A DNA stretch of 63,024 nt, filler included, from Nemertoderma westbladi (GCA_032718475.1; 4 parts of 4 records of this genome joined end to end with filler, not necessarily neighbours in it), one strand, 5' to 3'; positions 7,489-40,164 are shown, counted from the whole stretch's first letter. The notes: generated by a model from the sequence alone, not told the origin. A program made the numbers and translations.

Positions 7489-7820
7489 TGTCTTTAGTTT
7501 AGTCTATGAATTGAATATAAAATTTTCTAATTGTAGGCCTCCTCTAAAAGAAACTATTTTAGTATAAATATAACAGTAAACTTTTAACTAAAATGCATGA
7601 TTTAGAGGAAGTATGGTATCCTGTATATAATGACAGGGACGATAAGTTCCTAAAAACTCAGAACAGGGGGCGATGAGTTACCAACAAAATGCAATTTATA
7701 GTGGCGATAAAGTTCCAGGGGCGACAAGGTCATGCTTCGATACTTCAAATGTACCATTTTGGCTTTTACCCCAATGTGAAGAATACCAGGTTCTCACTTT
7801 TCGGTAGAGTATTCACTAGT

Positions 7821-8664
7821 CATAGTCAATTGCGCGCATGTCCGCAATGTTAGGTTTGTAGAGGACTCACACTTAACATAGTCACTAGCGCGCATGTCCG
7901 CTATGTTGGGTTTGTAGTGGACTCACACTTAACATAGTCACTAGCGCGCATGTCCGCAATGTTAGGTTTGTAGAGGACTCACACTTAACATAGTCACTAG
8001 CGCGCATGTCCGCTATGTTGGGTTTGTAGTGGACTCACACTTAACATAGTCACTAGCGCGCATGTCCGCAATGTTGGGTTTGAAGTGGACTCACACTTAA
8101 CATAGTCACTAGCGCGCATGTCCGCAATGTTGGGTTTGAAGTGGACTCACACTTAACATAGTCACTTAGCGCGCATGTCCGCAATGTTGGGTTTGTAGTG
8201 GACTCACACTTAACATATTCACTAGCGCGCATGTCCGCAATGTTGGGTTTGTAGTGGACTCACACTTAACATAGTCACTAGCGCGCATGTTCGCAATGTT
8301 GGGTTTGTAGTGGACTCACACTTAACATATTCACTAGCGCGCATGTCCGCAATGTTGGGTTTGTAGTGGACTCACACTTAACATAGTCACTAGCGCGCAT
8401 GTCCGCAATGTTGGGTTTGTAGTGGACTCACACTTAACATAGTCACTAGCGCGCATGTCCGCAATGTTGGGTTTGTAGTGGAATCACACTTAACATATTC
8501 ACTAGCGCGCATGTCCGCAATGTTGGGTTTGTAGTGGACTCACACTTAACATAGTCACTAGCGCGCATGTCCGCAATGTTGGGTTTGTAGTGGACTCACA
8601 CTTAACATAGTCACTAGCGCGCATGTCCGCAATGTTGGGTTTGTAGTGGACTCACACTTAACAT
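7821..8664. repeat. 56-bp minisatellite, ~15 copies
   Basis: Unit CATAGTCACTAGCGCGCATGTCCGCAATGTTGGGTTTGTAGTGGACTCACACTTAA, near-identical copies with no spacers. Confidence 0.97.
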
Positions 8665-8724
8665 TTTCGAAACAAATTGCAGCATCAGTACGTGATTCAT
8701 TTTTTCAAATACATAATATATCGA

Positions 8725-9085
8725 AGACAAAATGCGGCAGCACTGGCTGGTACTAGGAAGAGAGACCACATTACTTCAGTCCTTAAGACCTACATTGACT
8801 TCCGGTTAATCGACGCATTCAGTTTAAAATAGCTCTCCTAACATACAAATGTATTACCGCTCTTGCACCATCATATTTGGTAGACCTACTGACGCCTTAC
8901 AATCCCCTTCGCCAGCTGCAATCCCGTGATGCGGGACTGTTAGCTGTTCCCCGGTATCGCCTTGCAAACTATGGAAAACGGGCATTCCCCATCGCTGCTC
9001 CTACAATAAAGAACACTCTACCAATCAACCTACTCCAGCATTAAACGCCTTATTAAACGCGGGACTCAAGACTCATATATTTAAA
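8725..9085 (+). mobile_element. L2/CR1-group LINE ORF2 C-terminal fragment (degenerate)
   Basis: Translates, with breaks, to QNAAA..RKRDHITSVL..LPVNRRIQFKIALLTYKC..APSYL..LLAVPR..YGKRAF..AAP..LKTH. Confidence 0.8.
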
Positions 9086-9894
9086 CAGGAATACTATGTC
9101 GTCTAACTCCTAAAGAACGTCTCCTTTTAACTCATTTCCGCTTTTGGCGTTGTCTTTGTTTTTACTTCAGTAAAATTCTAAGTCTAAAGTGTCTTGCCTA
9201 GGGGAGTCAATGGCGCGGATTGACCGCAAACACAAAATAAATTTTAGTGGGTTTTAAAAATTGGTTTAATTTAATTAAAAACATTAAGGGAAAGGATCAG
9301 TTTACAGTGGCGGTGTTTTCTAACCAAAACAATAAACTATACATTATTTCACTTGCGGTTAATTTGCGCTGACGATCAACATTTTCACTTGCGGTCAAAT
9401 TGCGCCACTATCTGGCCTAGGGACACAACAGTATTTGAATTAAGTGGGGTGCAAAATATGCTTTACAATACACTTTCTCATATGGGCGGGCCCTCGTGTT
9501 GCGCTAACCTAAAGCATTGCAATAATATTCTCCAGAATCAGAATTACACCTTTGTCTGATTGATGCCTTACAATTGGGATGATTATAAAACAGAATGCAA
9601 GGTTTCAATTATTACTAAATATGTATTATAAGACAATAAGTGTTAAGTTTAGAATTGTAAATTCGACTAATTTTAAATTGTCCCGAAACGGAAGCGAAAC
9701 AGAGTTGAATTTAAAACGGTTTCCAGATTCGAAATTGCTGATCTGATGGGGGAGGGGTTACAAATTGTAATAATATTATGAATTCACTTTTTTGGAGATT
9801 CAACTATAACATATATAGTAGTGCAATTAAGATTAAAATAAATTATAATTGTAGAAACCAAGATGCAAAGTTTCTCCAATATGAATTCTTTCTG

Positions 9895-12800
9895 TTATTT
9901 CTTTTGTTGACACGCGTAATCCATGAAGGTCGGGTTTTTAGGTCTCTGTCTCTCAGACTGACCTCGGCCACTTCCCTCTGGACGTCGTCTATTTCCATGA
10001 CTATGCACCCGAGATTGCTTAGGACCTTTTGGAACACCCTCTAATTGGCGTCGTACATTGTCTACTTCCATTGTTGGGCATTTCTCAAACCATGATGACC
10101 AAATTGTTGAGGCCATCAATGTTGAAGTATTTCCTATCCCTATAATTGCTCGACGAGCCCTTGTCAATAAAACATTCACTCGAAGTTTATCATCTGTAAA
10201 ACCTAAATTACCATATCTGTTTGCTCTTACTGTTGAAAAAATAATTATTTCATTTTCACGTCCTTGAAATCCATCAATTGAATTGACAGAAATACCTTGC
10301 CAACCATTACCATCCAGTCTACTACGTATGGCTCTAACTTGCCCGATATAAGGACTGAGCACAGAAATATACGACAGTAGCAAATCTTTGTTTTCATTTA
10401 GTAAAACTTCTATAACATCAATGACAATATCAATTTCTATATCATTTCTGAATGACATTCCGGAGTGACGCTCATAGCCATCTTCAACATTTACAAAACA
10501 CATTGGAAGATTAGATTTAGGAAATGGGAATCCAGGGGTAGGTCTTTCTTCCTCTGTAATGGCAGATGTCAACATGCCATTGTAGAAAGTGTTTGATGGA
10601 AATTCTGCAAGAGCTGGATGCATTCGGTGCTGCTCATTAAGAAAATATACATTATAATTGAAGTTATGAAGTTTGTGAAACAAGCTTGATGACAGTTGGG
10701 ATACATTTGGTAATTCTGGCATTTCATCTTCAATGATTTTTGTTACACTACTGGTCATTATCAGAGGTGATAACTGATCAGGATCACCAATTAATACAAC
10801 CTGTTCACAACCATGTACCAATGCCGGCATCAGTAGAGGTTCAGTAACCAACGTAGCTTCATCTATAATTACAAAACTAAAAATAACGGATGACTTTTCA
10901 ACAATTGATTCCCCTATACCGATACATGTGCTACACACAACTTCGGCAGATTTAATGATGGTCTTCGCAATTCTTGTGTTTCGGTGCATTTTTCCATATT
11001 GATCACGCTGTTGGGCATCTTTTCCTTTCCTAGTACATTCCTGCTCCAGCAGGTATTCCAATGAATGCGAATAGACATCATTCGCAATCTGGGCTCTATT
11101 TCCAATGCGCACCACCATAATCTTCATTTGCAATAACCGTCTAACAATGTTATCAATAGCTAAATTCGTTTCAGCAACTACTAATATTTTCTTGTTATTA
11201 TTTGTGGTTGTTAGAATTCTTTGTCTAATAATTTCACAAGCCACATAGGTTTTGCCGGTACCTGGTGGACCATGTATCAGAGTTAAACGATCTCTTAATG
11301 CTGCAGCCATTGCAGCTGACTGTGCTGCATTGAGATTTAATTTATTGATGTCCTTATGATGTTCTCTAACATTCTCCATACCAGTGTTTGTGCATTCTGC
11401 ATCATTACTGCTAGTCTGACGAATTTCAAAAATAGGAAGCACATTACAAACATCACTGGACCCTTTACTATCAGCCAGAAGGATACATGCATTTTTTATT
11501 CTCTCATAAGCAATAGTATTTCCTATTATATCTAATCTCCACAACCATTTCTTACCTTTCTTTAGGCAATTAGTGATAGCAAATGTTTCTGGGGAGTCTA
11601 GCTCAACTGTAATAATTAGTGGAGCTATACAAACTTTTAGTATTCTCCCAATTGTACTATGGCTGACCCAATTTTTGGTACATAATATTTCTTGAATATC
11701 CAATTTCCTGGTAATTAGGACACTTTGACCTAAAGTAAAGTTCCCCAAAGGAGAAGTACCACTGCTGCAATAAAATTCAATTCTAGTTTGTGTTGTAGGT
11801 TCAGGACTTTCATCTTTGCATAACAGTAGATTTGTGATTGTATTTGGGCTATCTGTTTCCTTACTTTCTTTCAAGTACATCCTTTCTTGCAATTCGTTCA
11901 CTTCCAAAACGAAATATATGGATTGCATTAATAGGATATTTATAGAACATTGTGTTTTTGTCATGGCTGATATGAGATCAATATGTGAAGTTTGATCAGT
12001 GGTGTTGGAGAGTGTTCTATACAGGCATTTTACTAACATCAAAGAATTCCTGTTCGTACACATAGCCCAAGTCTTCCAATGTGCAAGTTCTTGGCAGACA
12101 TCATCTTCCTTCCATAGGACTGTTTGAGGGCTGCAATGGAGTTTGCTAAGGAATAGTTCGACTTTGTCATGAAATCCTAGTCGTGACATATACGTTACAA
12201 CTAATACAATGTCTCCCAGCATTGGTTTGTTACATACTAACTCTATGAGAATATCACAAATATCACTAATTTCCACAGAAATTTGAAATATTGCTCTAGG
12301 TAAATGTCCAATATTACTGCAGATGTTTTGAAGTAACTCAAAAATGCACAAAACTGTTATATGTGACATGTTGACATCAAGAGACAACATCTTCCACAGT
12401 GCTTGACGAAATGAAACTACATGACAGTTACAAGCTAATATTTCAAGGTGACTTTCATGAATTTGACTATCTTCACCAATATGGTCTGTGATGTCCAATT
12501 TCGATTTGATTAAAAAGTCTTCTTCATCATCACTAACATCATCTTCTGAGTCTTCTTCAAATTTGACATCTCCATTGTCACAATCATGGGTTAAAACACT
12601 ATTGTCGACATAGCTATCAAAATAAGCAGCTGCAGGTGGGATTGTACTAACAAATATTTCCACAGCATCATAATTCTGTTTGTTCAATATAGGATGTTGT
12701 TTTTCTGTGTGAATGTTCTTGTTGAAACGTATCAAAGAAATGCTTAATTTGCCTGATATCTGTAGATCATCATCATCTTCTTGCACATTTATTGCTTTTG

Positions 12801-15800
12801 GAAATTTCTTTTTAGTTATTTTATTTTTGCTGTTTCCCAAAAGCCATATAAATGTTTGTGTTAGATTACCTTCATATATTTGGAGTAGTTCACTATTTAA
12901 TTTATAGCTATGCCCTTTCCCAACCACACATAAAGAAGTAATATGAAATCTAGGGGACCATAAGTATGCCACACACGAATTGCTTGCCATTTCAAACTCC
13001 CCACACATCAGTTGCTTCTGGAAATGAATAGCCACCTGAACATTATCAGGCATTGAAAGTATTATCAAGCATTGTTCAAATTTTGTTAGTCCTTTTACAA
13101 TGTATTCCCAGTCATAGAGACTTGATGATGCATTAGGACTACTGCAATACCAACACCAAAATAGTGACCATTGTCGAATATGCATATTTGGTATGAATCC
13201 TTCCAGTTTGGCTATGTTGAGGATATCTGATTTATATAAATCATTAAAAACGACATTACGTGGAATTCCAAGATCAAGTGCATGAATCAGTTGTTCTGTA
13301 CTGAATTGATTGAATCGAATATATTTTGAAAACTTTACCAATTTCGGTATAACCTCATCATGGAAAAGTGACTGCAATTGACACCAAATAGCAACAAAGT
13401 TAAATATATAATAATCACTCAAAGTATTATCTCTGGTTGTCAACATATCCCATATAAATTCTTCTGAAATATCACCTAAGTATTCAGTGCCATTTTCTAT
13501 ACCTTCTTGTATGGTTTCATTTTGTATTTCATTTGTGAACTTTAATGCCTCATCTAGCATTAATTTCCATACAGGTACAAAGTTTTTTGATACTGTGGCT
13601 GAAACAGATTTCAGACTATGAGGAATTTCAACACACTCGCCCGTTTTGGCACCATCAATAGCTCTAGAAAACAACTGACCTAGCCTGATGCATTCACTAC
13701 ATCCCACACCTTTCATATCAGCCCATTTTCTATAGAGACTATCAATTAGACCAACAACACTTTGTGTTCTATTCTGCTTAGCAAAGTAATCTATTATCCT
13801 TTCAAATGTGATGTTCCCAGATGGTTTGGATATTGCATCAGGGTAGTCATATGGATCTATTGTATGAGGTGGTATAAGATCTGTATCCCAGCTTACAAAA
13901 TACATATCACCATCCAAATCTGAGCCTGCAATTTCATTCGAATGGGGTCGCTTTCCTGATACAGGAAACACAATGCAATCTACTAAATCATTCTCCATTT
14001 CATAAAAAGATTCATTTTGTGAGTAATCTGTTGAATCTACTGCTCTCAAGACCCGTATGTCACCACGCAAGTAGCATGGGTTCTTACCAACCACAACTTT
14101 GCTTCTGATTGTCACAGGTTTTCCTTTGATGGTTGGACGAAAAAAACATTGACCATATTCCAGAATTCCATATGGGTCACATATTCCATACACATTTCTA
14201 GATTCTTCTATCAACATCCTCAATCTCTTAACTTCACTTGATTTATTATCCCTCCCTTGTATAAGTTTACTTCTTATTTGCTTCAGTTGTCTCTTCAAAT
14301 ATTCAGGCTTATACTGATGAGCATTCATAACTTGAAGTGCCCAATCAAATTTATTTTGCCATAATAGTAATGTAACTGCAGCTTCATTGTCCGTAAACAT
14401 GGCTTTCACTAATGCAAAATATTTCTGTTGTTTTTCTAAAAATATTTCATCAGGTACTCCACATGCGGATAGCAATGATATAAACTGCCAATTCAGATGA
14501 CCATAGGTGTAAGGTTTCGAAAATCCAGCCAAACCCAATATTACTCCTGCAGTTACTTCCTCAGGGACATGAAACTTTTGCATTGATGGTCTTACTACCA
14601 TGCCATCTTGCTCTACTAGTTTGCTATTAAGAGAAACAACTCCTTTGCATCCTTGATATCTGATCTGATATACTGAAGGTAAATAACCATTTAGGAATTG
14701 AATTTCATCAGCGCCATCTGCAGCTTTAAATATATTATTTGCTAAATGTGTCCCTATCAACCCACACCCATCCGTAAAGTTGAATTTTTTGTCGGGTGTT
14801 TCTATGTCATTTTCTGCTTTTACATTATTTGGATTTATAGGGACAGTCATAATAACAGCTGAAAAAAGTAATCCAATACGTGCTATACGCTTAGATACTG
14901 TTTTTATGTTGTTGAAATTCCCAAAAGATTGCAGGACTTCTTCTATTTCTGTAAATGAACCCTGGAACATATAACATTTCCTTGCTTTTAATCCACTACT
15001 ACTACATCCTATAAAGTTGTAACCCTTACCCATTATAATAATTCCATTAATAAGCAATTTATATACAAGGTTCGGTTTTATCTTTGAAGAAAATGCTAAT
15101 AATATCAGCGGAGTTGTCCCAAGAACTTGTATCATTCTATTTGTCTGTGGAAATGGAATGGTAGTCCAGTTTTGATCAATTTCATCATCATGAAATGCAA
15201 TTGTCCTTATTGTAGTATCTGTAGTTTTCTCTTTATGTTTTAACTTCCAATAGGGTAAATGAATCCTACTTGGTGTGATGGTATCATATTCTAAATGGAA
15301 CTTAAGGGAACATTCACCACATAAAGCATTTCGCAGCCATTTTAGCCTTTCATCAATACTACCCTCAGCGAGGGAAAAATATGGAATACCAAGGCCTTGA
15401 AATAATTTTTCAAACAAATGTGTAAATTTCATAACCTCTTCAAAGGAATCATGAACAAGTCGGACATCATCAGCTGGGCCTGTATCTGAAAACCATGGGT
15501 AAACAATAACAACAAGACATTTCCTATAGTGTTCAATACACTTCTTTGTATAGTCAGTTGTTTGGAGAGTCAACTTTTGTTCATATGAGCAGTAATATTC
15601 GGTATATATCAACGGATCAATTCCTCGATCAGATATGAAAGTATCTGGGATGGGTTTGTCACGAAAGTACTTTTCTTGGAATGAACATTGTTGTTTCATA
15701 ATCCTGTGTTGTAATTCTATAAAGTATTTGCAATCAGTTTTGACTGATTTTCTCAGATCTTCACTTGATATACGATCCTTTATCATGATATTCCGAGCTA

Positions 15801-15900
15801 TTTCTGATATAAGTGGTACTTGTAACTGATCTTTAAGTTTCGTGGCTAACGTAGTTTTTCCAGTCCCTCCAGCACCCATTAGAATAATAGGTGGTTTCAT
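9895..15900 (-). CDS. 2001-aa fusion: P-loop kinase (AAA_28/NadR-like) + cellular RNAi-type RNA-dependent RNA polymerase + UPF1-like SF1 RNA helicase
   Basis: Kinase: GAGGTGKTT and ISDRG. RdRP: FTDGCGLI, YQIRYQGCKGV, RPSMQKF, KNPCYLRGDIR, and AGSDLDGDMYFVSWD (DLDGD at 13906-13920). Helicase: HGPPGTGKT (11248-11271), AETNLAIDN, IIDEAT, IGDPDQL, QHRMHP, SPYIGQ, IDGFQGRE, NVLLTRAR. Single uninterrupted ORF. Confidence 0.95.
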   Translation of the reverse strand: MKPPIILMGAGGTGKTTLATKLKDQLQVPLISEIARNIMIKDRISSEDLRKSVKTDCKYFIELQHRIMKQQCSFQEKYFRDKPIPDTFISDRGIDPLIYTEYYCSYEQKLTLQTTDYTKKCIEHYRKCLVVIVYPWFSDTGPADDVRLVHDSFEEVMKFTHLFEKLFQGLGIPYFSLAEGSIDERLKWLRNALCGECSLKFHLEYDTITPSRIHLPYWKLKHKEKTTDTTIRTIAFHDDEIDQNWTTIPFPQTNRMIQVLGTTPLILLAFSSKIKPNLVYKLLINGIIIMGKGYNFIGCSSSGLKARKCYMFQGSFTEIEEVLQSFGNFNNIKTVSKRIARIGLLFSAVIMTVPINPNNVKAENDIETPDKKFNFTDGCGLIGTHLANNIFKAADGADEIQFLNGYLPSVYQIRYQGCKGVVSLNSKLVEQDGMVVRPSMQKFHVPEEVTAGVILGLAGFSKPYTYGHLNWQFISLLSACGVPDEIFLEKQQKYFALVKAMFTDNEAAVTLLLWQNKFDWALQVMNAHQYKPEYLKRQLKQIRSKLIQGRDNKSSEVKRLRMLIEESRNVYGICDPYGILEYGQCFFRPTIKGKPVTIRSKVVVGKNPCYLRGDIRVLRAVDSTDYSQNESFYEMENDLVDCIVFPVSGKRPHSNEIAGSDLDGDMYFVSWDTDLIPPHTIDPYDYPDAISKPSGNITFERIIDYFAKQNRTQSVVGLIDSLYRKWADMKGVGCSECIRLGQLFSRAIDGAKTGECVEIPHSLKSVSATVSKNFVPVWKLMLDEALKFTNEIQNETIQEGIENGTEYLGDISEEFIWDMLTTRDNTLSDYYIFNFVAIWCQLQSLFHDEVIPKLVKFSKYIRFNQFSTEQLIHALDLGIPRNVVFNDLYKSDILNIAKLEGFIPNMHIRQWSLFWCWYCSSPNASSSLYDWEYIVKGLTKFEQCLIILSMPDNVQVAIHFQKQLMCGEFEMASNSCVAYLWSPRFHITSLCVVGKGHSYKLNSELLQIYEGNLTQTFIWLLGNSKNKITKKKFPKAINVQEDDDDLQISGKLSISLIRFNKNIHTEKQHPILNKQNYDAVEIFVSTIPPAAAYFDSYVDNSVLTHDCDNGDVKFEEDSEDDVSDDEEDFLIKSKLDITDHIGEDSQIHESHLEILACNCHVVSFRQALWKMLSLDVNMSHITVLCIFELLQNICSNIGHLPRAIFQISVEISDICDILIELVCNKPMLGDIVLVVTYMSRLGFHDKVELFLSKLHCSPQTVLWKEDDVCQELAHWKTWAMCTNRNSLMLVKCLYRTLSNTTDQTSHIDLISAMTKTQCSINILLMQSIYFVLEVNELQERMYLKESKETDSPNTITNLLLCKDESPEPTTQTRIEFYCSSGTSPLGNFTLGQSVLITRKLDIQEILCTKNWVSHSTIGRILKVCIAPLIITVELDSPETFAITNCLKKGKKWLWRLDIIGNTIAYERIKNACILLADSKGSSDVCNVLPIFEIRQTSSNDAECTNTGMENVREHHKDINKLNLNAAQSAAMAAALRDRLTLIHGPPGTGKTYVACEIIRQRILTTTNNNKKILVVAETNLAIDNIVRRLLQMKIMVVRIGNRAQIANDVYSHSLEYLLEQECTRKGKDAQQRDQYGKMHRNTRIAKTIIKSAEVVCSTCIGIGESIVEKSSVIFSFVIIDEATLVTEPLLMPALVHGCEQVVLIGDPDQLSPLIMTSSVTKIIEDEMPELPNVSQLSSSLFHKLHNFNYNVYFLNEQHRMHPALAEFPSNTFYNGMLTSAITEEERPTPGFPFPKSNLPMCFVNVEDGYERHSGMSFRNDIEIDIVIDVIEVLLNENKDLLLSYISVLSPYIGQVRAIRSRLDGNGWQGISVNSIDGFQGRENEIIIFSTVRANRYGNLGFTDDKLRVNVLLTRARRAIIGIGNTSTLMASTIWSSWFEKCPTMEVDNVRRQLEGVPKGPKQSRVHSHGNRRRPEGSGRGQSERQRPKNPTFMDYACQQKK

Positions 15901-16461
15901 TGTGTTAATAATAGGTCAGACTCAGTTCATCCTTATTCATAATTTTTGCTTATCGTTATAACACCTGCACATGATTGCAGTTGGTCAATTATATTTGTTT
16001 ATGGATTATTATGATAGATCCCAGATGGCAATAAACTTATGTATGACAACAAAACATAAAAGAATAGTATTGTGAACTACACTACCCCATATATTTGGGT
16101 GCATGTAAAGAGCGGACTGCGGACTACGGACTGCGGATTGTCAATTAAAAGCCCAAATATGCGCGGTCAATTTGAATTTATAGCATTATAATGTAAGCAT
16201 CCGCTCTTTGTTGTCTGGACAAACGGCGGAATGAAGCCAGAAAATTGTAACCTGATTGGCTCAATCATTTACATAGGCCCAAAGGGAACTTTCCTGAATC
16301 CTCTTATTGGCTTAAATGTTTTCATTGTGACACATAGAGATGGAAACACAAACCATATTCCAACATTACTACAGTTGTACAGTATAATTAATTATACTGT
16401 AAGTAATTAAGTAGGCCTACCGGTGCGGTATCAATTAAGCTATGCCGTCAGCAGGGATCTA

Positions 16462-17336: not shown

Positions 17337-17436
17337 NNNNNNNNNNNNNNNNNNNNNNNNNNNNNNNNNNNNNNNNNNNNTTAATTAATTAANNNNNNNN
17401 NNNNNNNNNNNNNNNNNNNNNNNNNNNNNNNNNNNN
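17337..17436. other. Artificial contig linker
   Basis: N44-TTAATTAATTAA-N44, giving stops in all six frames. Confidence 0.98.
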
Positions 17437-17535: not shown

Positions 17536-20500
17536 ATGGGAGATAAAACCTAATTGTCAACAGACCAATTACAGGCCATCATTAACGCTGCTGTCTCTGC
17601 AGCCGTTTCTCAGATGGCAAATGTACCGTCAAATTCAGCTCAGAATGAAACAATACGGGGACTACAGATCCCTATTCTTGATTTGGGCATCGATAAATCT
17701 CCAAAAAGTTTTTCTGACTGGAAACTGACTTGGGAAGACTATGCCAATCTCTCCGGTTTGACCACTTTCCCAGAATCAAAACAAATGCGCGTCCTTCGAC
17801 TGGCTCTATCCGCTGAAACCAGGGATATTCTAAACGCATTTGATTTACCTGAAACCAGCACAGTTCCAAATGCCATTGCTCGTTTGGAGACTTATGTAAA
17901 TGGTGCAGTCAATATAACAATGGAACGACGAACATTTCGCCTAAGACACCAGGAGGAGGGCGAATCCATAGAGGACTGCTATCTTGCTCTGAGAAACCTA
18001 GCTCGTTCATGCAAATTCAATGACCCGGAAATCGATCAGTATAACCAAGCACTAAAAGACCAACTAGTTGAAGCTCTCACTAATGAAGAGGACAAACAAA
18101 AGGTCTTGAAATTACGGGATGCCCCTTTGAATACCATAATTGATGAGTTAAGAGCTGAAGAATCTGCATCAGCCAGTGCTGCTGCTATTGTTAAAAAGGA
18201 ACCCGCCGTCAATGCTGCTAAGTCTTCCACCTACAAAGGAAACAAATGGAAAAATAAGGCAACTCAAAATGATGATACAACATCACACAATCAACAGAGT
18301 AAAAGGTTGTGTAAATGGTGTGGTGGAACCTGTTCATCAAAGGATGTTTGTCGTGCTAAAGATAAGATATGTGGCTTCTGCGACATAAAGGGCCATCTAT
18401 CATCTGTCTGTAGAAAAAAGAAATACTCAGGATCTCCAGAAACCCACGATATCTTGACTGTCACTATCATGCGATCAGAAGCATCTCAGAGCCCATCTGT
18501 CAAAAGCTCCCCTACAACTATCATTGGTGTACAACATCATGATTTTAAAACATCAATTCCCATGCTTCCTGACTCTGGAGCTGACCTATGTGCAGTAGGA
18601 CCAAAATTTATCAAACTTCTAGACATTGATATTGACAATCTCGCCCCTTCACCTTATATAACCACAGTCGCGGATGGTTCTAAAATGTACCCATTAGGCA
18701 AGGTGCGAAATGTCACACTAACAAAAAATAATCAGAAAGTGGAAACAGACATTCACGTTTTCCCACGCGTCTCAACTCCACTTCTGTCATGGACAGTAGC
18801 AAAGAAATTCAAGATAATTTCACCAACATTTCCAGAGCCATGGGTAACTGAAACCTGTTCAAAAAATAGTCCACCATTAAGCAATAAATCTCAAACAGCA
18901 TCAAATACAAACCAATCAAGAACTTATGCAGAAGTTGTTTGTCAACAACCTCTTACAAACACTTTTCAAACCAAAAACGCTGCCACTAATAAAGAGAATA
19001 CCAATAAAAGGGATGAGGACAAAATTAATATTTTAAAGGAGTTTAAAGATGTATTCTCCGATGAAATAAAAGTAATGCCAGGTGAACAATATCACATCGA
19101 CTTAAAACCAAACGCCAAGCCGTTTTCCATTAGTGCACCAAGGACAGTTCCATTAGCATATCGTGATAGACTCACAGCTGAATTAGAACTGCTCACATCT
19201 AAGGGAATAATAGAAAGAGTTAGTCATCCAACCGACTGGGTGGCTCCGATTGTTGTTGCTCCAAAAAAAGGCTCTGATAATATACGAATGTGTGTTGATC
19301 TCAGTCAACTAAATCGCCACGTACGCCGTGAACGTTATTGGACACATTCGCCAATGGAGGCTGTAGCAGGAATCCCAACCACTTCCCAGTGGTACACTGT
19401 GATTGACGCTGTTAAGGGCTATCACCAATGTCCACTTGATGATGAGTGAAAAGATCTTACAACTTTCCTCACACCGAATGGGAGATACCGCTTTCTCAGA
19501 GCACCATTTGGAGTTAGTTCAATCAGTGAACACTATAACCGAAGAATGGATGAAGCTTTGGAAGGAATTCAATTCGTGAGAAAAATTGTAGATGATGTAT
19601 TGATATTTGGAGCAACCTACGACGAATTAATTAGCCGAACACATGCTGTACTACAAAGATGCCGTGAACGGGGTATCACTCTTTGTCAGAAAAAGCTTCA
19701 ATTTGCTCAACAAGAAGTATGTTTTGCTGGCTATGTAATTTCAGGAGGCTCATACCACACAAATCCAGATATCACAACAGCAATAAAATCATACCCAACA
19801 CCGACAAACAGAACACACATTCGCTCTTTCTTTGGACTTGTAAATCAGGTCTCACCCAAGACATCTGCTATTGAACCTCTTCACCATTTACGTGAACTCC
19901 TCTCTACAAAGAAAGACTTCATATGGGATGCAACACATGACAAAGCTTTTGCACAAGCCAAAGAAATACTCTCAGAGGCAATATCATTAGGATTCTTCTC
20001 AGCAAACCATGACACCCAATTGATAACAGATGCCTCTAGAATAGGTCTTGGCTATATCCTCCAACAACGTCCTCAAGGAGAGACTGGTGAGTGGACAACT
20101 ATACAAGTTGGATCTCGTTTCCTAACAGACACTGAAACAAGATATGCAGTAATAGAACTTGAACTACTTGGCATTGCATGGGCTTGTAAGAAATTGGATA
20201 AATTTGTACAAGGATTAGATTTCACTATTCTTACAGATCATAAGCCTATTGTGCCAATCTTAAACAGTCACCGTTTAGACGAAATAGAGAACCCACGCCT
20301 CCAACGTCTTCGTCAACATCTTATGCCTTATGCTATTACAGCAACATGGATAAAGGGATCTACCAATATTGCAGCAGATGCACTATCACGAAATCCTGTC
20401 AATGGCGATAATGAAACAGTAGATATGGCCGATATTGAACCAATTGATGTGTCTACAAGGATATACGACTCAAATAAATCGCCTTCTATACATGAAATCA

Positions 20501-21275
20501 AACTATTTTCATCCGGCACAAGAGATGAGGATCTGCGAGTTGCTGAGCTGAGAAAATATGCCATTGAGGATGGTGAATACAACCACCTTCGTGAAATAAT
20601 CTCCAAAAGTGGTTTTCCAAATACTCCTTCTGAACTGCCAGAGAATATTAGGAAATATTGGAGTGTCCATTCCGATCTTACTGTTGAAGATGGTCTTATC
20701 CTACTAGGCTGTCGTCTACTAGTCCCAGCCGCTCTTCGTGCAACAGTCTTATCACGGCTCCATGAAGCACATCAAGGTATCACCCGTACAACAGAGAGAG
20801 CACAATTCAGGATCGCCTACCAGCTCACCGTTCTTCCTTCGACCCAAAGTGGATAAAACAACATCGTACAATTGATGAACGAACAACAAATACACAGGTG
20901 AAGGCTAAAGCATACTTCGACATACATACACGGCCCAATGACTCATTCAAAATAGGGGCAAATGTTTTAATATGGAATATGATAACCCGTCGGTGGAACT
21001 TATCTGGTAGCGTTATAGAGGTAATAAACCCACGTAAATACGTTGTTCGAACTACCAGCGGGCGTATTCTAACACGCAATAGAAAACATCTACATCGCCA
21101 ACAAATACTACCTGCTGCCATTCCGGTGAACGTCAAACCGCACGTAGATCACTCGGAAAACCCACAACCAATGAACACTATGGGAAAACCAATACATTCT
21201 ACAACATGTCCACCTCCGCGTAGAAGTTCTAGGCAAGTTCGAAGACCAATACGCTTAATAGAGGAGATGGAATAA
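17536..21275 (+). pseudogene. Disrupted gag-pol: gag, zinc knuckles, protease, RT, RNase H, integrase remnants
   Basis: CGFCDIKGHLSSVC knuckle, DSGA protease, IVDD RT, ITDAS RNase H, HEAHQG integrase start. In-frame TAA at 17551 and TGA at 19447. The integrase DDE core is missing after ~20806. Confidence 0.88.
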
Positions 21276-35207: not shown

Positions 35208-38023
35208 TGTGGAGGTCCGGTGGAACCGACGACGGAGTCAGTCCGTGGCGTGACGTCGGTACCGGAGCGAACCGTCCGACCGTATCCCAGAGTTGAGGGA
35301 GGATCGTGGACGGCGAGTGCTGGGCGCCCGTAGCCGGCGGAAGGAACTCGCCCGGGATGGTGAGGGGGGCACCGTAGACCAGCTCGGCGGAGGAGGTCCC
35401 CAAGTCGTCCTTGGGAGCGGTCCGGATTCCGAGGAGAACCCACAGCAACTCGTCGACCCAATCGGGGCCGGTGAGCGAGGCCCGCAGGGCGGACTTTAGG
35501 TGGCGGTGGAAACGTTCCACCAGTCCGTTTGCCTGCGGGTGGTAGGCCATGGTGCGGTGCAGTTGGGTGCCCAGCAGCTGGTTGACGGCGGATCAGAGCT
35601 GGGAGGTAAACTGCGAACCGCGGTCGGAGGAGAGATCCGCGGGGATGCCGAACCGAGATATCCAGTTGGAGATGAGAGCCCGGGCGCAACTCTCGGTGGA
35701 GGTCTCGGTGAGGGGCATGGCCTCTGGCCACCGAGTGAACTGGTCTACCATCGTCAGCAGGTGAGTGAACCCGCGCGATGGTGGTAGAGGGCCGACCAGA
35801 TCCACGTGGATGTGGTCAAACCGGCGGTGGGGGGTGGCGAAGGTGCCGAGGGGCGCGCGGACGTGGCGTTGCACCTTGGAAGACTGGCAAGGGATGCAGG
35901 TCTTCGCCCATTCGCCCACCTCTTTGCGGAGGCCGTGCCACACGAACCTGTCAGCGACGAGTTTCTTGGTGGTACGAGCGCCGGGGTGAGACAGGCCGTG
36001 TAGGGCGTCGAAGATGCGCCGTCGCCAGGCGACGGGGACGACGGGGCGCGGGTGTCCGAGAGAAACGTCGCAAAGTAGAGTGGCGTTGGCGGGGGCGAGC
36101 GGGACGTCTTCCAGTTGGGGGCCGGACACGGCGGAGCGGTAGGTTGGCAGCTCGGGGTCGGCGAGTTGGGCAGCCGCCATAGCCGTTTAGTCGAGGGCAC
36201 GGAGGAGGGTTCGAACCGCGCTGACGGTTGTCCTGGAGAGCGCATCCGCCACACAGTTGTCTTTGCCGGCGATGTGTTCGATCGCCGTGGTGAACTCGGA
36301 AATGTAGGCGATGTGCCGTTGTTGCCGATTCGACCACGGGTCGCTGATCTTGGTGAATGCGAACGTCAGGGGTTTGTGGTCTGTGTAGGCGGTGAATACG
36401 CGGCCCTCCAGGTAGTACCGGAAGTGGCGAACAGCGAGGTACAGCGTGAGGAGTTCCCGGTCGAACGCGCTGTACTTCACCTCTGGGGGGTCGAAGTTGG
36501 CGGCTGAAGAACGCCAGGGGGCGCCACGAGTCGCCGACGAGCTGTTCTAGAATGGCGCCCACCGCCGTGCCGGATGCGTCCACGGTGAGCGCCGTCGGTG
36601 CATTGGCGTTGGGGTGGGCAAGCATCGTGGCGTTGGCGAGGGCTTCCTTGGTGTTCCGGAATGCTGCCGCCATGTCGGGGGTCCAGTCGAGGGACTTGGG
36701 TTTACCGGCAAGGGCCGCGTAGAGGGGCCGCATGATGGCAGCGGCCGCGGGGACGAACCGATGATAGAAGTTCACCATCCTCACGAACTCCTGCAGGCCC
36801 TTGACGGTGGTCGGCTGGGTGAACTCCCGGATGGCGGCGACCTTGTCGGGGAGCGGGACGGCGCCGTGGGCCGAGATTCGGTGGCCGAGGAAGTCGATGG
36901 TCGACTGACCGAACTCGCACTTGGCGAGGTTGATCACGAGGCTGTGTTCTTGGAGGCGCGTGAAGAGCTGACGGAGGTGGTCACGGTGTTCCTTGGGGGA
37001 CCGACTCGCGACGAGGACGTCGTCTAGGTAGACGAAGAGGAAGTCGAGTCCCTGGCACACCGTGTCCATCAGTCTCCGGAAGGCCTGGGCCGCGTTCTTC
37101 AGCCCGAATGGCATTCGAAGGAATTCAAACAGGCCGAACGGGGTTATAACCGCGGTCTTGGCGATGTCGGCCTCGGTTACGGGGATCTGGTGGTAGCCGC
37201 GCACCAGATCGATCTTAGAAAAGATCTTCGCCCCAGCCAGTCTGGAGGAGAAGTCCTGGATATGGGGGATGGGGTATCGGTCCGGAGTCGTGGCGTCGTT
37301 GAGGCGTCGGTAGTCGCCACACGGCCGCCATCCACCCGAGGGTTTAGGGGCCATGTGGAGGGGTGACGCCCAGGGACTGTTGGACCGGCGGATGATCCTC
37401 ATCTCCTCCATCTTCCGGAACTCGTCCCGCGCGATCTCGAGTTTGTCTGGAGGCAGACGACGGGTGTGGGAGTAGACCGGGGGTCCCTCGGTGGGGATGT
37501 AATGTTCGACCCCGTGTTTCGTGGTTGGGTTGGAGAACCGAGGGATCGTAATATCGGGGAACTCGGCGAGGAGCCGAGCGAACTCGTCGTCCGAGGCGGT
37601 GACAGAACCGAGGTGGGGGGCGTGGCCCATAGTCCGCCCGCACGGGATCGAGGTCAACGTCTCGGCGTCGACCAGACGGCGGCCTCTCAGGTCGACCAAT
37701 ATGTTGTTCGCTCGGAGGAAGTCGGCTCCGAGGAGAGGCTGGGCGACGTTGGCCGCGATAAACTTCCACTGGAACTGGCGGGAGTGGAAGTCGAGTTTGA
37801 CGGAGCGGTCGCTGTACGTTCGAATGTACGTTTTGTTGGCGGCGAGGAGGGGGGGCCCGCTCTGTCCCGAACGTTCCTCGCGAGTCGTCATGGGAATAAC
37901 GCTTACCTCCGCCCCGGTGTCGACCAAGAAGCGTTGCCTGGAAACGCGGTCCCAGGCAAACAGCAGCAGGTTGGTGTGGCCGGCCGTTGTAGCTGCTACA
38001 AACGGCCGGCCGGGGCGTTTCCC
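35208..38023 (-). pseudogene. pol: Pol (PR-RT-RH-IN), disrupted
   Basis: LVDTGA, YLDD, VDASG, HGLSHPG, HVDLVGPLP, SDRGSQF and YHPQANGLVERFHR. Frameshift at the G-run near 36485; stops at 36187 and 35593. Confidence 0.9.
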
Positions 38024-38700
38024 TGGTAACTGCAGGGCGGGCGGCACTTCCTGGCTGTGGGGCCGAACGTCTGGTGATAATAGCACCAGTCTGGGTTCGA
38101 GTTCGGGGCACGCGGGGCGGGAGTCGACGCCGACGATGAGTTCTTGCTGGTTCGCTGCGGCGGGACCGGCGTCGGTTTCCCTACGGCATGGGCCGCGAGT
38201 GAGGTCTGCCAGGAGGCCTCCCACAGCGCGTCGGCCCGGTCCGCAACCCTGTTGAGGTCGCGGAAGTCCTCCTCCGCGAGTTGGAGGCGGATTGCGGCGG
38301 GCATCTGCCGGAGGAAGGCCTCCTCAAAGAGGAGTCCCGCATTGTCGTCGCCGAGGAGCGCCTGCATTTCTCCGAGGAGTTGCGAGGGGCGCCGGTCACC
38401 GAGGCCATCTAGGTCCCAGAGTCGGGCTGCGCGCTCGCGTCGGGAGAGCCCGAAGGCTTTGAGAAGTTGGCCCTTGAGTTTGAGGTACTTCTCAGTAGCG
38501 GGAGGGTTCCGGATGAGTTTTAGGAGGCGAGCGGCTGTCTCCTGGTCGAGGGCCCCCACCACATAATAATATTTTGTAGCGTCCTCGGTGATGCTGCGAA
38601 TGTGGAACTGTGCCTCCGTCTGGGCGAACCACACCTCGGGTTGGGTGGTCCAGAACGGAGGCAGTTTAATAGAAACGGCGTTGGCGGTCGCTTCGCCCAT
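37996..38700 (-). CDS. gag: Gag (CsRn1-type)
   Basis: [42 protein letters not shown] and the CHCC motif. ATG at 38700, downstream of the PBS. Confidence 0.85.
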
Positions 38701-39150
38701 TGTCGTCAACACAGTTTCGGTGGCTGTTCCAGTTCGATTGCAGGATCGTGTTGCGAGTCGCGGTCTCAAGAGTTCGTCTTGAGACACTGGGTCACCAATG
38801 TAGTGATGGGTTCTAGCCACGAAATGAAAACTTATCAAAACTCAAGTTCGAGTCTTTGCTGAAGGCATACTGCAGTACAGTCGTACAATTCTGTAGGTCG
38901 GCCTAATAACAGAATACGTTATTCTCTAGGGTTGCTAGGTAACCGTAATAACAAAGTTTTGAGACTGTATATTGTATGTGGGGCTGCCACATTTTATAAT
39001 ATTATATTTCAAAAAATTTGCAATATGTAATTATGATGTTAAAGTTATTCATCAACGCAGTCATATTAGAAATCAATAATAATACAATAACATAACATAA
39101 CAATAACAATAACAATATTATAACATTAATAATAATCAATACCGGAATAC

Positions 39151-40164
39151 TTAATTATCATAAACGAACTCCAAACCAGTTCCTTCTAAGTGGTGTTTCT
39201 CCCACTGATCCATTATCGCTAGCTGTTCTTCACTAAAGTGATTCTTCCAATCTCTGACCCCACCTTTCCTTATAAACTTTCCATGAATAATATTACTCTT
39301 ATTAACAGCATTATTCTCTCTCATGTTTTTAAATGATAAATGATCTTCTAATTTAGCTATTTGCTCTTCAGCCAGGGATTTCCCTAGAAAATCAGCTGTT
39401 TTTTTAATGACCCCCGCCAGGTCTTACTTCATATCCTCAAACCTTAGGAACAACACATTTTCCCTGCCTCTAATTTTCCAGTATCCAAGGTAATGCTGCA
39501 AAGCTGGGGTATATAAGCCAGAAACATCATTGACGAAGGCGTTGAAATACACATCCCATGGTCCTGTGTATCCCATTATTTGCCAATGGTAAAACAGTGA
39601 CACACATGCGTCTCTGGGATTACGTATAATGTGAATGATTTTCGGCTGCTTTTCTCCAATCTCGTATGGGAGCATATCAATTGACAAATGTGTTTTAATA
39701 ATTCTAGGTGAAGATTTTGATTCAGCTAATTCTAAGGATGTGTTATATACTCTTGTATCGCTATCTTCGTGCAGGCAGCTATTAATATACATTTTATACT
39801 TTTCCTCACTAATTGCTTTGGAGCCCTCCAAAAACGGGACCCTTCTCTCTAAGTCAATCTTTTTGGCAAGTTCGGTATTAACGTCATTCATAATACACCA
39901 AACCATATCTTTTGTCCATGTTGTACCACATTTGGGAAAAGTACAAATCCAGACATCATCAAGTCGCACAGGAAATTCAAATATTTTCTTTTGATATTCT
40001 GTTGTGTATATTCTGGCAAGAACTTGTCCACTTGGTTGGAATTTAACTAACCCTGGAAAGGCAGTAGTACCTGTACCGGTAAAATTATTTGTAAATTATT
40101 TTATAAGATTTTCTTCAATTTCTTCTGTCCAGACCTCACTTTTGCGAGTTGAGAAAGAAGCCAT
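39151..40164 (-). pseudogene. Intronless cytosolic sulfotransferase (SULT) pseudogene
   Basis: TFPKCGTTW (5'-PSB), IIKTHL, RNPRDACVS (3'-PB) and FIRKGGVRDWKNHF in one frame from ATG 40164 to TAA 39151. In-frame TAA at 40096-40098 and 39424-39426. Confidence 0.85.

Follow-up and report, generated by a model that had tools for sequence, protein, structure and literature searches.

The 63,024-nucleotide stretch of Nemertoderma westbladi DNA analysed here (the window; GCA_032718475.1, four parts of four records joined end to end with filler) contains an intact, single-exon open reading frame (ORF) for P0001, a protein of 2001 amino acids (aa) in which a predicted kinase, an RdRP (RNA-dependent RNA polymerase) and a superfamily 1 (SF1) UPF1-like helicase are joined in one chain (Table 1). 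An earlier account of the window, made from its sequence alone (the sequence-only reading), had described a single unbroken 2001-aa frame without stating its strand. The frame is real and lies on the minus strand; the plus-strand frame of the same interval has stops throughout, and 2001 stop-free codons would be expected by chance with a probability of about 1e-69 at the base composition of the DNA. All motifs that had been named lie where they were placed (GAGGTGKTT at aa 9, ISDRG at aa 89, DLDGD at aa 661, GPPGTGKT at aa 1544 and DEAT at aa 1680), and the anticipated Pfam domains AAA_28, RdRP and AAA_11/12 are all matched. P0001 is the product of an intact host gene belonging to an old, patchily kept eukaryotic family of RdRP–helicase fusions.

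Public sequencing data and comparison with homologues support the integrity of the gene. Four public DNA runs of one organism carry the ORF stretch: X1 from one sample, X2 and X3 from a second, and X4 from a third. No RNA run was listed with them, which bears neither way on expression. In X1 a single 6,783-bp contig covers positions 9343-16125 with 0 differences, and in X2 and X3 the same span lies in a single contig with 2 differences (6,779 bp in X3); read depth is level across the ORF in X1-X3, with high-copy repeats on either side. The sequence may itself derive from X1-X3, which exclude an assembly join without representing independent populations. One contig of about 6.78 kb spans the ORF in three runs from two samples, ruling out chimerism or misassembly, and thus no chimeric junction of the kind that the sequence-only reading had marked for checking lies inside it. 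A whole-length protein search returned 475 proteins at E<=1e-10, and the family counts given below rest on the best 120 of these. In an alignment with the 120 homologues, every insertion in P0001 is at most 13 aa and every missing conserved block at most 3 aa; with no large insertion or lost block relative to the family, the ORF is one complete coding exon, and it keeps 251 of 269 highly conserved family columns. No second copy of the gene was found within the window.

The polymerase of P0001 matches the Pfam RdRP model (PF05183) at aa 279-764 (E = 9e-106, 355 bits against a cut-off of 23.8) and retains 121 of 128 highly conserved columns. Its structural model aligns with Neurospora QDE-1 (Z 33.5, root-mean-square deviation (rmsd) 4.0, 541 residues aligned, 17% identity) and with maize RDR2 (Z 32.8, rmsd 2.8, 548 aligned, 30% identity). 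Plant RDR2 and QDE-1 have the two-barrel core and the DLDGD motif in common with P0001, whose N terminus is instead formed by the kinase. The match to QDE-1 ends at QDE-1 residue 1185, and that to RDR2 continues to model residue 925. Where QDE-1 carries the C-terminal head segment (residues 1196-1372) that provides most of its dimer contact (PMC1750930), P0001 has a helical bundle and a predicted TLDc domain.

The N-terminal domain is predicted to adopt a kinase fold, as the sequence-only reading had expected. Pfam AAA_28 matches aa 5-185 (E = 2e-19, 70.8 bits, cut-off 27), Walker A and the hhhhD-R motif are both present, and the fold nearest to the model is the kinase domain of NadR (Z 17.9, rmsd 2.5, 173 aligned; a second NadR match has Z 16.9), followed by deoxyadenosine and thymidylate kinases. 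NadR is also the best sequence match among solved structures (E = 1.6e-6), and sequence profiles agree with the folds in placing the domain nearest to small-molecule nucleoside and nucleotide kinases. Identity to NadR is only 13-19% and P0001 has no adenylyltransferase domain; the NCBIfam NadR model, which includes that transferase domain, scores 24 bits against a cut-off of 341, excluding a whole NadR but not its activity. The domain had been proposed to be a nucleotide or RNA-end kinase: the first option agrees with these small-molecule matches, and the second gains no support from them. The 50 fold matches listed for the N-terminal model, which may not show every matching family, include no polynucleotide kinase of the PNK/Clp1 type. 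Beside the polymerase, the NadR-like domain probably plays an accessory part, phosphorylating or sensing a nucleoside or nucleotide. Of the 120 homologues, 80 have the kinase region, 58 of these with both motifs, and 32 lack it, a pattern that takes at least 8 changes on a 114-row tree. Stand-alone AAA_28 look-alikes occur in ascomycetes, molluscs and phages (Atlas); a word-seeded, insensitive search for stand-alone forms of aa 1-200 found none at E<=0.001 among 208 candidates.

Between polymerase and helicase lies a conserved middle region with a predicted TLDc fold that the sequence-only reading missed. The three domains that this reading named are real, carry intact catalytic motifs and form a natural fusion, and the count rises to four to five. 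AlphaFold models of aa 1-1120 (pLDDT 83.9, pTM 0.80) and aa 791-1955 (pLDDT 83.0, pTM 0.72) point to two folded halves with an acidic linker between them. The TLDc region matches NCOA7B (rmsd 3.1, 156 aligned) and the zebrafish OXR2 TLDc domain (rmsd 3.0, 155 aligned), both with Z 13.4, and five TLDc proteins match at Z 11.0-13.4 over about aa 880-1095. Foldseek returns E = 1.6e-4 for this region and a sequence profile gives E = 0.12 to 4acj; Pfam TLD matches are weak and below the cut-off, in 5 of 19 fragments and in P0106. A BACK-like identity for the preceding bundle is a lead only: the Atlas gives BACK/TLDc as the first match for one homologue, at 0.75, and Pfam BACK has no match in the P0001 homologue sequences and fragments searched. 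A word-seeded, insensitive search for stand-alone forms of aa 810-1480 found none at E<=0.001 among 6601 candidates. The TLDc proteins Oxr1 and Ncoa7 bind V-ATPase, and the group includes IFI44 and an interferon-inducible NCOA7 isoform that restricts endocytosed viruses (PMC8294626). In P0001 the predicted TLDc domain probably offers a surface for docking, perhaps on membranes that carry V-ATPase.

A UPF1-like helicase makes up the C-terminal half. Structural matches to IGHMBP2, Upf1, SETX and ZNFX1 start at about aa 1260-1310, and Pfam AAA_11 (from aa 1522) and AAA_12 (aa 1736-1925, E = 4e-50) cover the core. By structure the best matches are IGHMBP2 (Z 35.8), Upf1 (Z 34.9) and SETX (Z 33.8); by sequence, Upf1 scores highest (190 bits, E = 2.5e-55), ahead of Sen1 (141 bits), IGHMBP2 (121 bits) and ZNFX1 (116 bits, E = 5.7e-33), making Upf1/NAM7 the nearest helicase among solved structures. 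ZNFX1 helicases carry a C-terminal zinc-finger array. P0001 is not of the ZNFX1/Hrr1 type: Upf1 scores higher, and only a basic tail of 61 aa extends beyond the core. A complex prediction between the RdRP and helicase cores, run without alignments, scored 0.00, which speaks neither for nor against contact.

Table 1 Coordinates of P0001, its domains and neighbouring features in the window (aa, amino acids; RT, reverse transcriptase)
Feature	Position in P0001	Coordinates	Strand	Basis or content
Intact single-exon ORF P0001	2001 aa	9895..15900 (15900->9895)	minus	
NadR/Ttd14-type (AAA_28) P-loop kinase, predicted fold	aa 1-195	15316..15900	minus	Walker A GAGGTGKTT, ISDRG motif, DDxR motif
Cellular two-barrel RdRP core	aa ~230-775	13576..15213	minus	catalytic DLDGD aa 661-665 at 13906-13920
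Small helical bundle, possibly BACK-like	aa ~810-895	13216..13473	minus	helices in both models
TLDc-fold domain, predicted	aa 882-1086	12643..13257	minus	structure matches
Acidic, low-confidence linker between halves	aa ~1095-1125	12526..12618	minus	sequence; pLDDT <50
Helical segment followed by UPF1-like helicase stalk and beta-barrel	aa ~1125-1480	11461..12528	minus	model
SF1 UPF1-like helicase core	aa 1522-1935	10096..11337	minus	GPPGTGKT, DEAT, GDPDQL, QHRM, DGFQGRE, NVLLTRAR
Short basic unconserved tail	aa 1941-2001	9898..10080	minus	61 aa after helicase core
Tandem array		7702..8786		56-bp unit
Assembly gap		17337..17436		
Gypsy-like retroelement remnant		17554..21275	plus	gag/protease-like ORF, one stop, then RT-RNase H
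Long ORF, 639 aa		25637..27562	minus	no Pfam match
Long ORF, 591 aa		32076..33932	minus	no Pfam match; Cys/His knuckle-like motifs
Second Gypsy-like element		35593..38841	minus	GC-rich (63%); DUF7041 gag, RT/RNase H, integrase-like frame
Partial cytosolic sulfotransferase gene		39424..40095	minus	Pfam E = 1e-41
Three neighbouring ORFs, 187-260 aa		53870..56065	minus	no Pfam match

P0001 is one member of a large family. DxDGD is kept in all 120 homologues, all of which also cover the middle region; the helicase Walker A is present in 118 of the 118 covering it, and DEA in 114 of 116. Named members come from sponges (Ephydatia, Dysidea, Oopsacas, Geodia), cnidarians (Actinostola, Dendronephthya), bivalves (Mytilus, Mercenaria, Mya, Dreissena), the copepod Neocalanus, the diatom Amphora and the diplonemid Rhynchopus. 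A search with only the middle region (aa 791-1500) matched 56 of 1.84 billion cluster representatives, 39 of them at E<=1e-10, and added proteins of Volvox africanus and Chlamydomonas schloesseri with RdRP and helicase domains and one of the diatom Attheya with only RdRP at the threshold used; none of these three has a kinase match at E<1e-5. The rarity implied by the sequence-only reading therefore gives way to a widespread family whose RdRP and UPF1-like helicase core is already known, published and partly characterised. Three aspects seem to lack a published description in the literature searched: the fusion of a NadR-like kinase, the TLDc module and how widely the family is spread. That literature gave no account of a kinase or TLDc domain fused to an RdRP–helicase, although earlier comparative work on RdRP and RNA interference (RNAi) evolution may contain one, and the available text of PMC4182546, PMC4870495 and PMC13650160 holds none of a kinase–RdRP–TLDc–helicase architecture. 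Some members differ in other ways: the C. schloesseri protein (P0217, 2908 aa) is annotated with an N-terminal cytochrome P450 stretch, possibly a gene-model fusion, and P0003, P0012, P0014, P0016 and P0022, one of which clusters with a Geodia protein, have extra precomputed Pfam matches to PF00642, PF18345 or PF18044, which we take to be CCCH-type zinc fingers.

Polymerase and helicase have been inherited together. Their pairwise identities correlate across 114 proteins (Spearman 0.89; 0 of 200 permutations as high), and separate RdRP and helicase trees both recover a 16-row group with all named sponge rows, a 13-row group of cnidarians and bivalves and a 3-row copepod group, so the fusion dates far back and has been passed on as one unit. 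Neither tree gives P0001 a supported sister, and its identity to the rows of the RdRP tree does not exceed 51%, which implies long maintenance. Diatom sequences sit among animal ones in the RdRP tree with weak support; the root of that tree is itself weak because three RdRPs from metagenomes served as the outgroup, one of them interrupted by 5 stops in the part used, and because two long branches came together. None of 600 pattern matches in viral contigs was confirmed as a relative, nor was any of 20 in GTDB genomes (single-sequence patterns of low sensitivity), and BFVD yielded only remote phage polymerases and AAA_28 proteins. A viral or prokaryotic origin was rejected, no relative having been confirmed in the viral contigs or GTDB genomes. 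A metagenome scan returned 6 loci, all distant RdRPs and none matching the kinase, middle or helicase regions.

The closest characterised likeness is Fgrdrp5 of Fusarium graminearum (FGSG_09076), an RdRP with C-terminal helicase and AAA domains (PMC4515635), in which DEXDc spans residues 1277-1478 and AAA_12 residues 1475-1677 (PMC11237814). In 26 members of the P0001 family that lack the kinase the helicase lies at a median of 1288-1676, close to the 1277-1677 of Fgrdrp5, and Fgrdrp5 therefore probably belongs to the same family. P0001 has both a predicted kinase and a predicted TLDc domain, neither of which is reported in the available portions of the two Fgrdrp5 papers (PMC4515635, PMC11237814). 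When Fgrdrp5 is deleted, antisense exonic small RNAs of a Dicer-dependent pathway drop from 27.3% to 18.9% and 21-25-nt reads with a 5'-U by about 32%; ascospore discharge is impaired and ribosome-biogenesis genes are altered (PMC11237814). In Branchiostoma lanceolatum, BL02069 joins an RdRP with an intact active site to AAA_12; it is likened to P0001 by description, and the available account notes only AAA_12 besides the RdRP, with no kinase or TLDc, and found no function for it (PMC6396948). RdRPs are partnered with UPF1-like helicases in S. pombe and C. elegans, and Hrr1 is the ZNFX-1 orthologue (PMC9276528). In S. pombe RDRC (Rdp1-Hrr1-Cid12) and C. elegans EGO-1/ZNFX-1 the partners are separate proteins with a ZNFX1-branch helicase, whereas in P0001 the helicase is fused and nearer to Upf1, with kinase and TLDc added. 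Dictyostelium, oomycete, Hydra and Nematostella fusions place an N-terminal DEAD-box (Dicer-like) helicase and an RdRP in one chain (PMC4791657); the C-terminal SF1 helicase of the P0001 family marks a separate fusion.

An intact ORF with its motifs, a family around it, and a polymerase and helicase that have been inherited jointly underlie the reading we tentatively prefer, and to which we give a little under an even chance: P0001 may be a self-contained surveillance polymerase in which the helicase clears RNA and the RdRP makes double-stranded RNA (dsRNA) for Dicer. A chosen single-stranded RNA, whether an aberrant mRNA, a repeat or a viral RNA, would be held and cleared by the UPF1-like helicase; the RdRP tethered to it would make long dsRNA from this template and, by analogy with Fgrdrp5, Dicer would cut the product into small interfering RNAs (siRNAs). 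Which RNA is used, the sequence of events and the passing of the product to Dicer are inferred. UPF1-like helicases translocate 5' to 3'. That runs against the direction in which the polymerase reads a template; the helicase might therefore carry the polymerase to the 3' end or peel off the product strand. The silencing or defence role proposed in the sequence-only reading remains plausible. Nematostella RdRP1-3, which may or may not belong to the P0001 family, are induced by poly(I:C) (PMC8476169).

Several observations weigh against it. The siRNA effect of Fgrdrp5 is modest and its authors suspect that it is partly indirect (PMC11237814); the probable kinship of Fgrdrp5 with P0001 is drawn from layout and spacing, not from sequence, and no fungal name occurs among 20 middle-region matches looked up (13 nameless, 3 'hypothetical protein'). 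Branchiostoma has no siRNA-like population despite its intact RdRP–AAA_12 gene (PMC6396948), and in Nematostella three assays did not detect secondary siRNAs (PMC12768352). Some kinase absences in the family may be gene-calling artefacts. The X4 contig, which covers 9866-13299 and leaves most of the N-terminal half of the ORF uncovered, in itself no sign of loss, has 22 differences and one gap in 3.4 kb; in a small, partial sample of the best-supported of these, 11 of the 13 listed in-ORF differences are nonsynonymous and 2 synonymous (neutral expectation 21% synonymous), and two of the 11 fall at conserved columns. This sample gives no sign of purifying selection, which is compatible with an allele in decay or with rapid evolution of the immune type.

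The strongest rival is an RNAi-independent immune amplifier, in which viral or aberrant RNA would be turned into long dsRNA or 5'-triphosphate RNA that alerts RIG-I-like, OAS or cGAS-like sensors and does not serve as a Dicer substrate. This would account for the lack of secondary siRNAs in Branchiostoma and Nematostella despite intact RdRPs, and for the co-induction of the Nematostella RdRPs with RIG-I-like receptors, OAS1, interferon regulatory factors and viperin (PMC8476169); the inclusion of IFI44 and the virus-restricting NCOA7 isoform among TLDc proteins points the same way, and the X4 excess of amino-acid changes would fit a fast-evolving immune gene. Diatoms, green algae and a diplonemid, which are not known to have animal interferon-type signalling, nevertheless carry members of the family as well, and the sole knockout of a similar fusion, that of Fgrdrp5, points to siRNAs. 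We regard the immune amplifier as unlikely, though a serious contender. The sequence-only reading had instead seen a fused small-RNA amplification machine, a covalent RDRC-like complex. Spelled out, this would be an RDRC or EGO-1/ZNFX-1 equivalent recruited by Argonaute that makes 5'-triphosphate secondary siRNAs, with the kinase processing RNA ends. That RdRPs and UPF1-like helicases are partners in S. pombe and C. elegans (PMC9276528) and that all catalytic motifs of P0001 are intact speak for such a machine. Yet the helicase is nearer to Upf1 than to ZNFX1 and ends in the 61-aa tail, no Cid12-like nucleotidyltransferase occurs among 25 of the 39 Pfam rows or the listed fold matches of P0001, and the best matches of the kinase are NadR, deoxynucleoside and thymidylate kinases. 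Secondary siRNAs were detected in neither of the non-nematode animals examined, which together with the Upf1-nearer helicase weakens the covalent RDRC amplifier to an improbable explanation.

Functions outside silencing and defence, or no function, carry still less weight. P0001 could act in RNA turnover linked to nonsense-mediated decay (NMD) or ribosomal RNA, with the helicase dominant and RdRP synthesis marking RNAs for decay. Upf1/NAM7 is the nearest solved helicase, Fgrdrp5 deletion alters ribosome-biogenesis genes and its authors infer NAM7/NMD links (PMC11237814), and Pinzon et al. propose non-RNAi roles for animal RdRPs (PMC6396948). The STRING link in the Fgrdrp5 study is a prediction only (PMC11237814), though, and patchy retention across eukaryotes would better fit a conflict-related gene than a housekeeping one; we hold RNA turnover to be quite improbable. 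The N. westbladi copy might, finally, serve no purpose at present, as a passenger in a repeat-rich region that was acquired horizontally or is decaying. The intronless ORF amid repeats, the absence of a supported sister in either tree, the weakly supported placement of diatoms among animals and the X4 allele with its gap and mostly amino-acid-changing differences are compatible with a passenger. Against it stand 2001 intact codons with all catalytic motifs and 251 of 269 conserved columns kept, identity of at most 51% to any tree relative, and neither a viral or prokaryotic relative nor terminal repeats found. A passenger is the explanation that we rate lowest, as very improbable.

The role of RdRPs in non-nematode animals is an open question, since they are kept in many lineages and secondary siRNAs were not found where sought. 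P0001 and its relatives define a coherent RdRP family that ranges over sponges, cnidarians, bivalves, one copepod and a number of algae and protists. Its RdRP has fixed partners in a UPF1-like helicase and a predicted TLDc domain, and frequently also a domain resembling nucleoside kinases. The catalytic or docking sites of the domains are separable, so that single-residue mutants of this one-exon gene could address the question. In a nucleoside kinase coupled to an RdRP, RNA silencing or antiviral defence would have a component not recognised so far. A bolder proposal, which we count as a long shot, is an ancient pan-eukaryotic defence enzyme that would dock through TLDc on V-ATPase-bearing endolysosomes, where viruses come in, and there unwind foreign RNA and copy it into a dsRNA alarm, its kinase activating a nucleoside such as an NAD precursor or an unusual ribonucleoside. 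If true, this would explain the retention of RdRPs without secondary siRNAs in non-nematode animals, and would couple nucleotide metabolism directly to RNA sensing.

The ORF is flanked by repeats, as the sequence-only reading said: both the high-copy flanks in the sequencing runs and repeat analysis of the window place it among them. No terminal repeats were found next to the ORF, by which it was ruled out as mobile-element cargo. The tandem array lies about 1.1 kb downstream of the ORF stop, and the first Gypsy-like remnant starts about 1.6 kb upstream of the ORF start, past the assembly gap. The two long ORFs are possibly gag-like remnants, and the cluster of three shorter ones is possibly one broken gene. 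The partial sulfotransferase gene is the sole other clear host gene seen in the window.

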